Origin: Stappiaceae bacterium
GTDB taxonomy: Bacteria > Pseudomonadota > Alphaproteobacteria > Rhizobiales > Stappiaceae
Direction of reading: 5' to 3'
DNA: 64,000 bases
NCBI GenBank assembly: GCA_964291365.2
Contig: OZ219975.1
Span: forward strand, 693 to 64,692
How positions within the stretch are numbered: the stretch's first letter is position 1; each line of letters starts with the position of its first letter. The notes beneath the pieces are model-generated. The model was not told where the DNA came from, made no database searches, and saw nothing but the letters and a program-made list of their open reading frames with translations. Positions 34,041 through 41,458 of the stretch are shown here, in pieces. The translations under genes and the position numbers were made by a program.

Positions 34041-35387
34041 ATACTCTTGTTATAACTTATCGCACATCTTTCGTTGATGTGCTAAATTGCTCTCTATTTA
34101 GAGCAAGAAGAGGAGAACTGAAGAAGTGAGTCTGTGATGGAGAGTATGTACCACACAAATTCAAATGTCTGATTCAGTAACTTTCCTACAGTATTCATTC
34201 ATTGTCCTATTAGTAGTTAACCCATCCTAGAAAGACTGAGAGTGGTACCTTCAAGTTTCTCACTGTACACAGTGGAATGCCTCTATATTGTATAGTCTGT
34301 AATAAGGACACCTCGTTTAATTGGGTCATTATGATGGCCAAAAATGAGTACAGGTTCTGTAATCCAGACACCTTAAATGGTTGCAACGGTGTCCAGACTA
34401 GAGGTGTTCCACTATGACAGGAATTGAAATTCTCTTTTGCCAAATCATGTGTCGATTTTTGTTGCAGCTGCAAGTAAGGATCAAAGAGAAGTGGAATCAA
34501 CACATTCCCAGTGTCCCTGGTGGTAGGAAATTCAGTATGAGATTTCCAAATTCTACCAAGATTGAGTGTACCATTGATAAGGCTACTCCTAAGTTACATG
34601 TACTACAATTAGTGTTAAGTGTGGGCTAACCTTTTTTTATCGTGATGCCATAATTGTGTAAACAGGTCTTGTATGTGATTGCGTTCACAGGAAAATGACT
34701 CCATGTGGACGGATTCACGCGGTCTACCGTATTGATGAAAGAAGCGGGCGCTACACTGCCTGGAGACGGCGTACCTGTAACACGGACTCTGTCAGTATTC
34801 CGTGTAAGATACGCACGGTGCATGCGGACTCCGTTGCTTGCACTATGCTTGCACGGTTACAACATTCGGTATCCGTCCTCTCGGCTTGCGCTACACGGAC
34901 ACAGTACAGAGCCGCGCACGAGACTCCACCCCATGCGCCCTGAATATTGAATCGCGAATACATATACGCGTACGCGAATTGAAAGCGATCGCGCGCGCTG
35001 CGCCGCGCAGATAGCTCTAATAGAAGAGGTGTGGTTACAATAATTAAAGTTCAGATCAGGGCGCCAGCAATACAGACTCATTGCTCAGCGATCAAAAATA
35101 TTCAGTGAGCATTGCTCTTGGCGTGTGAGCAAATCCATGTTTAGTCGCCACCGCGTGATACCTTCTACAACAAGAAATGGCAAGAAAGGTCGAGAGAACA
35201 AGCGATGAGCAGTTCTATAGTCAGAATTCGGACTTCACAGCCCAGGCTCGACCACGATCCATCGCACAGCTTGCCTTTTGAAAGATGCAGGTATGATCCT
35301 AAAAACTCTTTATTGATATGTGAATTATGAAATAGCTCATTGAGTGCCAAAATTATGAACCATAGCATGCACACACGCGCGTGTACT

Positions 35388-35438
35388 CACACACACACAC
35401 ACACACACACACACACACACACACACACACACACACAC
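35388..35438. repeat. (AC)n microsatellite
   Basis: Direct read. Its homologue lies at 56692-56723. Confidence 0.95.
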
Positions 35439-35986
35439 GCACATCAGATCGGTTAGTGAGTCTGACAGTTCGGAGTGATGAGATCATGATGATGTCAAGT
35501 CAAGAGTTTGTAGACCATTAGGTATACACTCACTAGAGCTAAATGCATGTATCAGCATGCCATGCATATACCGAGGCTACGCATGCATGTGTATTTAGCC
35601 AGTATTTGTATCTCTTTATAGAAAGACTACCCCAAACTGTGGATACTGACTTCCATTTCAGTGGCCAGCGCCCTCATAGTTGGCGTCCACACCTACGACT
35701 GATTATAAGTTAAGTGATGCATGTATATACATTGTGAACAATAGAAGCTTTAAGCTTTATATGTGTAGGCTTGGTTGTTAATTCCTGTAACTTACACGTA
35801 AGTGCAAACAACCCTGATGACACTGTGTACATTATTGTATTGCACCTGGTAGGCTATAGCTAACACCAAGGTTTAATTATTAAGCTGATAAGCTTTATCT
35901 ATGAATTAAGTCCTGCCACATGTGAATAGAGTGTCCTATACCATTTCTACTACTTTCCCATGCCCAATGACTCACTTGTCCATAAT

Positions 35987-38395: not shown

Positions 38396-40540
38396 ATTTA
38401 GGACTAGCCTGCTGTTAAGATGGCACATCTTTCAACAGTAAGACTCAGCTAAGATGGCACATCTTTAAGCTGAATGAGCATAAGAGTGTGTGAGTAATGT
38501 GCGTGTGTAACTGTGTGAAACTTCAGCTTGTTGTGTATCAGAGCGAGCGATTGGAATGTACCGAGCATTTAGGACTAGCCTGCTGTTAAGATGGCACATC
38601 TTTCAACAGTAAGACTCAGCAAAGATGGCACATCTTTAAGCTGAAAGGGCATAAGAGTGTGTGAGTAATGTGCGTGCATACATGTGAAACTTCAGCTTGT
38701 TGTGTATAAGAGTGAGCGATTGGAATGTACCGAGCATTTAGGTCTAGCCTGCGGTTAAGATGGCACATCTTTCAACAGTAAGACTCAGTTAAGATGGCAC
38801 ATCTTTAAGCTGAATGAGCATAAGAGTGTGTGAGTAATGTACGTGCGTACATGTGAAACTTCAGCTTGTTGTGTATCAGAGCGAGCGATTGGAATGTACC
38901 GAGCATTTAGGACTAGCCTGCTGTTAAGATGGCACATCTTTCAACAGTAAGACTCAGCTAAGATGGCACATCTTTAAGCTGAATGAGCATAAGAGTGTGT
39001 GAGTAATGTACGTGCGTACATGTGAAACTTCAGCTTGTTGTGTATCAGAGAGAGCAATTGGAATGTACAGAGCATTTAGGACTAGCCTGCTGTTAAGATG
39101 GCACATCTTTCAACAGTAAGACTCAGTTAAGATGGCACATCTTTAAGCTGAATGAGCATAAGAGTGTGTGAGTAATGTACGTGCGTACATGTGAAACTTC
39201 AGCTTGTTGTGTATCAGAGCGAGCGATTGGAATGTACCGAGCATTTAGGACTAGCCTGCTGTTAAGATGGCACATCTTTCAACAGTAAGACTCAGCTAAG
39301 ATGGCACATCTTTAAGCTGAATGAGCATAAGAGTGTGTGAGTAATGTACGTGCGTACATGTGAAACTTCAGCTTGTTGTGTATCAGAGAGAGCAATTGGA
39401 ATGTACAGAGCATTTAGGACTAGCCTGCTGTTAAGATGGCACATCTTTCAACAGTAAGACTCAGTTAAGATGGCACATCTTTAAGCTGAATGAGCATAAG
39501 AGTGTGTGAGTAATGTACGTGGAATGTACCGAGCATTTAGGACTAGCCTGCTGTTAAGATGGCACATCTTTCAACAGTAAGACTCGGCTAAGATGGCACA
39601 TCTTTAAGCTGAAAGGGCATACATGTAAGAGTGTGTGAGTAACGTGCGTGCATATCAGAGCGAGCGATTGGAATGTACCGAGCATTTAGGACTAGCCTGC
39701 TGTTAAGATGGCACATCTTTCAACAGTAAGACTCAGCTAAGATGGCACATCTTTAAGCTGAATGAGCATAAGAGTGTGTGAGTAATGTACGTGGAATGTA
39801 CCGAGCATTTAGGACTAGCCTGCTGTTAAGATGGCACATCTTTCAACAGTCAGACTCAGCTAAGATGGCACATCGTTAAGCTGAATGAGCATAAGAGTGT
39901 GTGAGTAATGTACATGGAATGTACCGAGCATTTAGGACTAGCCTGCTCTTAAGATGGCACATCTTTCAACAGTAAGACTCAGCTAAGATGGCACATCTTT
40001 AAGCTGAATGAGCATAAGAGTGTGTGAGTAGTGTACGTGCGTACATGTGAAACTTCAGCTTGTTGTGTATCAGAGCGAGCAATTGGAATGTACAGAGCAT
40101 TTAGGACTAGCCTGCTGTTAAGATGGCACATCTTTCAACAGTAAGACTCAGCTAAGATGGCACATCTTTAAGCTGAATGAGCATAAGAGTGTGTGTGTAA
40201 TGTACATGGAATTTACTGAGCATTTAGGACTAGCCTGCTGTTAAGATGGCACATCTTTCAACCGTAAGACTCAGCTAAGATGGCACATCTTTAAGCTGAA
40301 TGAGCATAAGAGTGTGTGAGTAATGTACGTGCATACACGTGAAACTTCAGCTTGTTGTGTATCGGAGCGAGCGATTGGAATGTACCAAGTATTTAGAACT
40401 AGCCTGCTGTTAAGATGGCACATCTTTAAGCTGAAAGGGTATGAGAGTGTGTGAGCAATAGGCTCATGTACATGTGAAACTTCACTTGTTGTGCGTCAGA
40501 GTGAGCAATTGAGATGTACATGTACCAAGCATTTAGGTGA
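38396..40540 (+). repeat. 169-bp satellite array (about 12 monomers, very homogeneous, with short-variant monomers)
   Basis: Same monomer family. Adjacent monomers are near-identical at 38400-39500. 46-bp-deleted variants lie at about 39519, 39790, 39911 and 40205. Confidence 0.95.
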
Positions 40541-41458
40541 CTATCCTACAGTTTAGTGGGCACTATGGGGAAATATTTGGAACACAGTCCTCTTTACCGC
40601 AAGTATCTAACATTGATGAATGTCCATCTCATTGTATAAAGACTTGGTATGTAGGTTGTTATATGCATCAATTATTATTTGTAATACTATTTATTATAGA
40701 GGCAGTTCATGGCTACTATGAATGTCGTTGGAGGTAGAGAGCGCTGAAAAAGTGCTGAAGAGGAAAAGAAAAAGCAGGAAGCATTCAAGTTTTAGCTGTG
40801 ATTGACTAACTACACCAACTGAGTGGATGTATCTACTCTCTTTATCAATTATTATTATTATGCTATTAATAATTATTATCATTATTGTAATTTTAATGCA
40901 AATTTATACGCATGCGCTATATGATATGATTCGGACGGGATAGAACTGACTGGAACGGGATCGTCAGACGGAGTTGATACGTACAAGTAGACGGAGGCGG
41001 TCCATGCGTTCCGATCGGACCGACGGATCATTGAGACGGAGTCACACGACGGACAATACTGGATAAAACGGAGTATCTAGACAGACTCAGCACGGATCTG
41101 ATAGCGGACTCAGTGAAATAGTCCGTAAAAAGTGGTCCCAATACGGGCGACAACGGTACTCGTTATCCTGGACATCGGAGATTCCGTTCCAAGCTCGTCT
41201 ATACGCGAACGCGGACCTCGTTCTCCCTGTATACGTGCACAGTTCACGCGGCTACGTTTTCCTGTGTTAGCATTTGGAAGCCGTGGAAAGCCATTTAATC
41301 TCTGCAGTATTATGCCTAGGCAACTAATTCCCCGTGGTGGTACCTTTTCAGGAGATGATCCACTTGCATTGGTTGTAGAAGAATCAGAAGATGCTCCTGA
41401 TCCCTGTGACTATCTTGATGCACCCACGGTATATGTTCAACAGCTTGAGTGTTCATGA

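Follow-up and report, generated by a model that had tools for sequence, protein, structure and literature searches.

In a 64,000-nucleotide stretch of contig OZ219975.1 (assembly GCA_964291365.2, positions 693 to 64,692; filed under Stappiaceae bacterium), referred to as the window, a family of transposons was found which carries a head-to-tail array of a 169-bp satellite monomer between its conserved ends. Elements of this family, named Y, have moved together with their array, the array has changed in length at one and the same locus, and recombinant copies exist; we consider it highly probable that the family jumped recently with this cargo and seeds the satellite at new sites. The monomer covers about 15.2 kb, i.e. 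24% of the window. The window DNA is eukaryotic, and the host is probably a sponge, since the sole named relatives of the transposase open reading frames (ORFs) in the window are from sponges (Halichondria panicea and Dysidea avara). Several contigs of the ENA assembly ERZ24894575 carry DNA nearly identical to the window. Within the window, a large segmental duplication is present (copy A, 637 to ~15837; copy B, 48426-64000; 93-98% identity), so that paralogous empty sites are available. A segment of ~370 bp including a partial monomer is inverted between copy A (10356-10720) and copy B (60880-61270). Additional loci (L071-L075) were reached via the ORFs of one duplicated unit and are paralogues or haplotypes of that unit.

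Family Y comprises elements 1 and 2 and three degraded right ends (Table 1). Because the right arms at 8814-9362 and 59314-59863 were duplicated with copies A and B, they count as a single event, and the distinct Y insertions known so far number four (element 1, element 2, the old solo arm and a truncated arm). The preliminary description of the window had proposed two complete elements with common termini, and the 12-bp terminal inverted repeat (TIR) CACAGGAAAAYG is indeed present at both ends of each. It occurs six times in the window (expected, 0.62), namely at 34686(+), 55988(+), 41255-41266(-), 59189-59200(-), 1399(+) and 49188(+). Thus, both elements read CACAGGAAAAYG...CRTTTTCCTGTG, with short TIRs starting 5'-CAC. 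The subterminal arms of about 300 bp, described before as crowded with ACGG/CCGT, contain 10-13 of these motifs per 320 bp compared to a window mean of 1.38, which places them in the top 1-2% of windows. The unique segments had been called homologous; between the elements, identity amounts to 93.7% over the left arm together with the left unique segment, and to 95% over the right unique segment together with the right arm. The non-repeat flanks inside the elements measure ~1.3 kb and ~0.7 kb. Both elements contain the head-to-tail array as proposed, but a 2166-bp transposon of the unrelated family X is nested in that of element 1 and divides it; this insertion is missing at the matching position in L071 and L072. 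Monomer numbers, previously given as ~13.5 and ~6.5, were measured as 14.3 (1.5 + 12.8) and 7.0.

Mobility was assessed by comparing filled and empty sites. Element 2 is present in copy B as GCT[TGT]CACAGG...CCTGTG[TGT]GTATC, and copy A has the empty site GCT[TGT]GTATC at 8703-8705, giving a 3-bp target site duplication (TSD), TGT. Element 1 reads GCG[TT]CACAGG...CCTGTG[TT]AGC in the window and GCG[TT]AGC in contig ctg22121l (L074), giving a 2-bp TSD, TT. A second family, Y2, is filled in copy A (TGT[ATA]CACAGGAGAAAATG...CATTTTCCCTGTG[ATA]GCT) and empty in copy B at 61506-61508 (TGT[ATA]GCT), with the 3-bp TSD ATA. In all three pairs, the breakpoints coincide exactly with the inverted termini and a single copy of the 2-3 duplicated bases remains, and several contigs agree on each filled or empty state; such breaks indicate cut-and-paste insertion instead of deletion or misassembly. 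As elements 1 and 2 are absent from their paralogous empty sites together with their arrays, the arrays travelled with the elements, in agreement with the earlier proposal of a cut-and-paste element seeding the satellite. The flanks of element 1 at the L074 empty site, which is from the same assembly as the other contigs, are unique, non-satellite DNA; therefore, an array of 7-14 monomers reached a new locus inside the element. The 3-bp TSDs expected before were confirmed for element 2, but not for element 1.

The array had also been described as an expandable interior. This is borne out by the element 1 locus, where 14.3 monomers in the window compare with 7.5 in contig ctg21252l (L072) between identical flanks; in L072 the X insertion at 36231 is missing and a different X-like element lies in the right unique segment. 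Rearranged copies were found at three further loci. In L071, a chimeric element with 10.1 monomers combines the left junction of element 2 in satellite with the right flank of element 1. On the 1.37-Mb contig of L073, the outer array A1 is joined directly to the internal array of element 1, corresponding to a 32-kb deletion in window coordinates. In L075, the right arm and flank of element 2 are duplicated in tandem. Monomers are 95.4% identical within the array of element 1, 92.3% within that of element 2 and 93.9% between the two, compared to 80-87% inside the outer arrays, which are nearer to the element monomers than to one another. Accordingly, the element-borne monomers are young and deviate little from the family consensus, and old age is assigned to the outer arrays. 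A unit of ~14-20 kb (1-1398 with 41267-46683; also L071, L072, L073 and L074) was seen on at least seven contigs, in tandem or dispersed, and its copies vary in the presence or absence of transposons and by satellite-array recombination.

Y2 was compared with Y with respect to arms and repeats. The arms of Y and Y2 contain 10-21 ACGG/CCGT motifs per 320 bp, and no similarity between the families was found beyond termini, a microsatellite and a repeat module. In Y2, this module is a 162-bp tandem repeat, of which ~90 bp align to the 169-bp unit with a score of 30 (shuffled sequences, 17.2 +/- 2.2; z about 5.8). The 15-bp palindrome AAGATGnnACATCTT has 245 matches in the window when one mismatch is allowed (expected, 0.16), and all are located in 169-bp monomers or in the Y2 repeat. 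Each 169-bp monomer has two palindromes of ~28 bp with the core AAGATGGCACATCTT, e.g. at 38588-38602 and 38622-38636. On single-strand folding, both form hairpins, and the overall energy of the monomer is unexceptional (z -0.44). The half AAGATGGC of the monomer palindrome resembles what we take to be a YY1-type core. Given the homologous repeat in Y2, the tandem-repeat module is probably ancestral to the transposon lineage and not a recent capture. Y and Y2, which share only the type of termini, keep palindrome-pair repeats near the same end. On this basis, it is conceivable, though rather doubtful, that the repeat is a conserved functional module with putative sites for an accessory protein of the transposon or for a host factor aiding transposition or chromatin targeting. 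If so, the dominant satellite would be an over-expanded array of transposon regulatory sites, and more elements of this family would be drawn to insert into it, as with element 2 in a monomer.

Outside the elements, the satellite was evaluated both as cargo and as target. According to the preliminary description, the right arm of Y also closes the long arrays. Right-arm copies are present at 8814-9362, 59314-59863 and 18086-18654, but the stretch 14590-18654 is not one continuous array, since monomers stop at 15933 and fragments extend to 17349, and its arm is truncated. Likewise, 53271-59863 does end with the older solo arm, but consists of an array with element 2 nested inside. The monomer into which element 2 jumped is degenerate and belongs to an older Y remnant; with an older array as its insertion site, the satellite has served both as cargo and as target. 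The right end of the old remnant meets satellite at a monomer position matching the insertion point of element 2 (junction directly before TGTGT(GT)AT(C/T)AGAGC). Nested insertions followed by array-to-array recombination, which removed left arms, fit this arrangement, and the old outer arrays may have begun as element interiors.

Among the alternatives, an older, independent genomic satellite which Y merely prefers as target, and which Y neither originated nor mainly spread, is the strongest, although we regard it as less probable than seeding by Y. Recombination between inner and outer monomers would then have deleted the left arms, and arrays would appear closed by arms as a result of insertion. 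The insertion of element 2 into a monomer, the old solo arm followed by satellite at the matching position, the greater age of the outer arrays and the array-to-array recombination seen in L073 and L071 are all in line with this. However, the surroundings of element 1 are unique DNA, and the empty site lacks the array in full, which shows that arrays are carried. Furthermore, array A1 and the internal arrays of elements 1 and 2 share the monomer phase at which they begin, degenerate last monomers beside the right unique segment are common to all right ends, and Y2 has a homologous repeat. Hence, we prefer the satellite as cargo seeded by Y.

Several points weigh against seeding by Y or limit its reach. 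Element 2 and the solo arm are found at the same monomer position, so part of the link between arm and satellite is due to insertion into existing arrays. The TSD is TT in element 1 and TGT in element 2, with only these two Y insertions for comparison. With respect to genome-wide dispersal, every further locus represents a paralogue or haplotype of the one ~14-20-kb unit. An autonomous copy with Y termini or ACGG arms was found neither in the window nor in the fetched loci, and the transposase genes of the window itself belong to another superfamily.

The mechanism may be pictured as follows. The ACGG/CCGT motifs of the arms would be transposase-binding sites, and a transposase encoded elsewhere in the genome would excise and reinsert the whole Y unit, array included, with a target duplication of 2-3 bp. 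Every jump would set a starter array at a new locus. After insertion, the array length would shift via unequal exchange or slippage, and recombination among arrays of different elements or loci would yield chimeric elements, deletions and solo right arms.

We infer that Y is a non-autonomous transposon of the CACTA/CMC type which is mobilised in trans. CACAGG termini, 2-3-bp TSDs and subterminal repeats together point to this superfamily. In CMC/EnSpm elements, the TSD has 2-3 bp, typically 3. Empty-site comparison gave TGT, ATA and TT, elements 1, 2 and Y2 have short TIRs starting 5'-CAC, and arrays of short subterminal repeats occupy both arms. A related genome provides an analogue: at L002 (assembly ERZ26694059), a 5247-bp insertion in a family Z element (4048-9294) has the ends CACAGGCAGAATG...CTACCTGTG (CACAGG...CCTGTG), the TSD GTA and an empty site in L003, and an ORF in it matches Transposase_21/tnp2 (E 4e-10; 39.6 bits, Pfam cutoff 28.6). 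Thus, CACAGG ends with a 3-bp TSD accompany a CACTA/CMC transposase in that genome. The subterminal motifs of the L002 element are of the GTTTAA type, not ACGG. A homologue of its Transposase_21 was detected neither in the window nor in the loci fetched from the window's assembly. The lack of a transposase of this family in the window, as noted before, was therefore confirmed; the transposase genes present are Zator/TP36-like. As no autonomous Y copy was obtained, the superfamily was assigned from the termini, the length of the TSDs, the build of the arms and a separate family found in another assembly. The CMC/EnSpm type suggested earlier is the assignment with the best support: termini, TSDs, arms and the L002 analogue agree with it, and a cognate transposase with Y ends was not found. 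A protein search with concatenated arm ORFs gave no matches, and low-complexity words probably saturated its candidate list. A metagenome DNA scan with a degenerate pattern of the Y terminus gave 0 matches; with the monomer core, 67 loci were returned, all of them single chance matches without real satellite or arm.

Alternatively, Y could be mobilised by the Zator/TP36-like (DUF7869) transposases which are abundant and active in this genome. The window contains such a gene at 30387-32803 and a pseudogene at 2387-5125, and the corresponding elements vary from contig to contig. In L073, the pseudogene has a CACAGGAAAATG terminus (the one at 1399) on one side and, on the other, a satellite array with a Y right arm at its end. 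The core GAAAACGAC is common to the Y terminus and the TIR of the related L003 element, and the TSD of element 1 has 2 bp. Nevertheless, we consider this origin improbable. The termini of those families read TGTG(A/G)C and their 2-bp TSDs are mostly TA, whereas Y has CACAGG ends, with a 3-bp TSD in two of the three verified Y and Y2 insertions (element 2 and Y2). In addition, the pseudogene lacks both own TIRs, the flanks of a unit from 1399 to 41266 are mismatched (AAT/TTA), and the L002 element links Transposase_21 to CACAGG ends and a 3-bp TSD. A transposase of the CACTA/CMC type therefore remains the preferred source of mobility. Finally, we consider it very improbable that the presence/absence differences arose by deletion or as assembly artefacts of a highly repetitive region: recombinant copies occur in this complex segmental duplication and several contigs may be haplotigs, but three independent pairs break precisely at the termini with a single target copy left, each state being backed by several contigs.

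Families X and Z were characterized for comparison. Family X has TGTGACCCGCTATGGAAAAATCGACC termini (TGTGACC) and 2-bp TSDs (TA or TT). The gene of its autonomous-looking element (30387-32803) is near-complete, matches Pfam DUF7869 (E 9e-17) and is interrupted by an (AG)n tract. This element and the X miniature inverted-repeat transposable element (MITE) are both absent from L074; as all three X copies are missing from other contigs of the same assembly, family X looks recently active. Taken together, X and Z elements end with TGTGACC or TGTGGCAG and have the TSDs TA, TT or TG. The 331-AA ORF of the decayed Z gene belongs to a cluster of 32 members over many contigs. P0122, the closest full-length relative of Z, matches PF07592 (DDE_Tnp_ISAZ013) with 28.7 bits (Pfam threshold 26.9), and we take this domain to be TP36. 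For P0123, P0213 and P0248, look-ups yielded no record. The Zator superfamily has been linked to bacterial TP36 transposases (PMC7386202). Intact Z relatives in ERZ26694059 (L002 3895-14584, L003 9437-12739; 3.3 kb) have 36-bp TIRs (TGTGGCAG / TGTGGCAGTCCCGTGTAGAAAACGACC), 2-bp TSDs and no satellite.

A third terminus of the Y type is present at 1399. Since it was duplicated with copies A and B, the termini at 1399 and 49188 represent a single event. A chance occurrence is unlikely. No extended homology to the Y arms was found beyond termini, the microsatellite and the repeat module. In L073, a terminus of this type shares one uninterrupted stretch with the pseudogene of family Z, a satellite array and a Y right end that is intact. 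The interval 1399-9362 was evaluated as an autonomous Y element and rejected, as its inner gene at 2387-5125 (-) is a decayed member of the Zator/TP36-like family, its flanks are mismatched (AAT versus TTA), and on its left it is flanked, in every copy, by sequence of the duplicated unit. The candidate unit of 7-8 kb at 1399 could possibly be a CACTA-like element with a captured fragment of a foreign transposase.

Table 1. Coordinates of family Y elements, satellite arrays and other transposons in the window.
Feature	Position	Strand	Remarks
Element 1 (family Y)	34686..41266	+	6581 bp; 12-bp TIRs; 2-bp TSD TT (34684-34685, 41267-41268)
Element 1, left TIR (34686-34697) and ACGG/CCGT-rich left subterminal arm	34686..35000	+	10 motifs per 320 bp
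Element 1, left unique segment	35000..35982	+	homologous to 56300-57276; (CA)n at 35388-35443
Element 1, first satellite part	35983..36230	+	1.5 monomers
Nested X-family transposon, unrelated to Y	36231..38396	+	non-autonomous; 2166 bp; TIR TGTGACCCGCTATG...; TSD TT
Element 1, main 169-bp array	38397..40563	+	12.8 monomers, including 123-bp deletion variants
Element 1, right unique segment, ACGG-rich right arm (~40930-41266) and right TIR (41255-41266)	40541..41266	+	
Element 2 (family Y)	55988..59200	+	3213 bp; TSD TGT (55985-55987, 59201-59203)
Element 2, internal array	57282-58466		7.0 monomers
Element 2, empty target site TGT	8703..8705	+	copy A; inside degenerate monomer of older Y remnant
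Outer array A1	5468..8702	+	~19 monomers; duplicate 53273-55981; identity within array 84.8%
Outer array A2	9361..10337	+	right of the old solo right arm, adjoining it; duplicate 59862-61054
Outer array A3	14594..15933	+	duplicate 62793-63957
Old solo right unique segment and right arm	8814..9362	+	terminus mutated to CGTTTTACAGTG; satellite on both sides; duplicate 59314-59863
Oldest right unique segment and arm	18086..18654	+	82% identical to that of element 1; without terminal ~95 bp
Y2 (second family)	10975..13890	+	termini CACAGGAGAAAATG...CATTTTCCCTGTG; TSD ATA (10972-10974, 13891-13893); arms dense in ACGG/CCGT
Y2, internal 162-bp tandem repeat	13145..13448	+	1.9 copies; homologous to core of 169-bp monomer; four AAGATGnnACATCTT palindromes
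Third CACAGGAAAATG terminus	1399..1765	+	exact 12-mer, then ACGG motifs; otherwise unlike Y left arm; duplicate 49188
X element, autonomous-looking	29638-33656		TGTGACC termini; TSD TA; gene 30387-32803
X MITE	28852-29529		678 bp
Family Z, decayed transposase gene	2387-5125, 50176-52920	-	Zator/TP36-like; stops, frameshifts, ~1-kb insert

Outside these features, a 5.2-kb minisatellite at 21884-27055 has an 18-bp unit (TGTTCCCAGTGTGCCTAC), higher-order periods of 36-171 bp and a strong skew of T over A. Two adjoining ORFs at 20620-21485 resemble the C-terminal part of a HECT ubiquitin ligase domain (weak Pfam match, E 0.09). ORFs for the reverse transcriptase of a retrotransposon without long terminal repeats (non-LTR) are located at 44864-45916 (-), with RVT_1 in the precomputed annotation of homologous loci. 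An Rfam scan of the whole window gave no family at threshold.

Transposons which carry tandem repeats and seed satellites were reviewed in 2025 (PMC12628747); the process is already known from plants, molluscs and flies, and Y is a clean example which is new for sponges. A literature search on the topic returned no paper linking sponge satellites to transposons. The Tetris foldback transposon of Drosophila virilis gave rise to a satellite built from its tandem repeats (PMC4079207); there, the repeats form long inverted arms, whereas those of Y form a direct internal array next to a 12-bp TIR. Non-autonomous Helentron/Helitron elements of Crassostrea gigas carry arrays like satellite DNA (PMC7492417) and, like Y, represent a mobile element spreading short satellite arrays over the genome. 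Elements of the Helitron type move by rolling circle and have neither TIRs nor TSDs, whereas Y has 12-bp TIRs and 2-3-bp TSDs. The DTC84 MITEs of the clam Donax trunculus also carry tandem repeats (PMC3879986). Similar to Y, DTC84 and pearl-type MITEs of bivalves are non-autonomous, with a central satellite-like array of variable monomer number between conserved arms. Y differs in its length of 3.2-6.6 kb, its long subterminal motif arrays, clear 12-bp TIRs and 2-3-bp TSDs. MITEs are under about 1 kb with a central repeat core; Y has such a core, but its elements measure 3213 and 6581 bp.

The closest parallel is the CACTA element Jozin of Chenopodium, which has a ~171-bp array near its 3' end (PMC8978399); the origin of the major Chenopodium satellite DNA is the subject of PMC7320549, as cited there. 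Both Jozin and Y have CAC-type termini, subterminal repeat arms and a tandem array of ~170 bp inside near one end, and in both cases the monomer family also occurs in arrays outside the elements. Differences are the apparent host, a sponge instead of a plant, the non-autonomous copies, the CACAGG instead of CACTA ends, the superfamily assigned without a cognate transposase, and the paralogous empty sites, which demonstrate transposition with the array. For the annotation of sponge genomes, it should be considered that non-autonomous CACTA-like elements ending in CACAGG are present, which are separate from the abundant TA-targeting DUF7869/TP36-like transposons. Seeding of a satellite was caught in the act, with matched sites with and without the insertion, once in unique DNA and once in an older array, and recombinant and deletion derivatives arose between arrays 32 kb apart. 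This gives a concrete route in an early-branching animal lineage from transposon cargo via dispersed arrays to structural variation. Y works like the Chenopodium CACTA example and adds to it the host lineage, the direct evidence from filled and empty sites that the array moves along, the recombinant derivatives and a repeat module common to two families.

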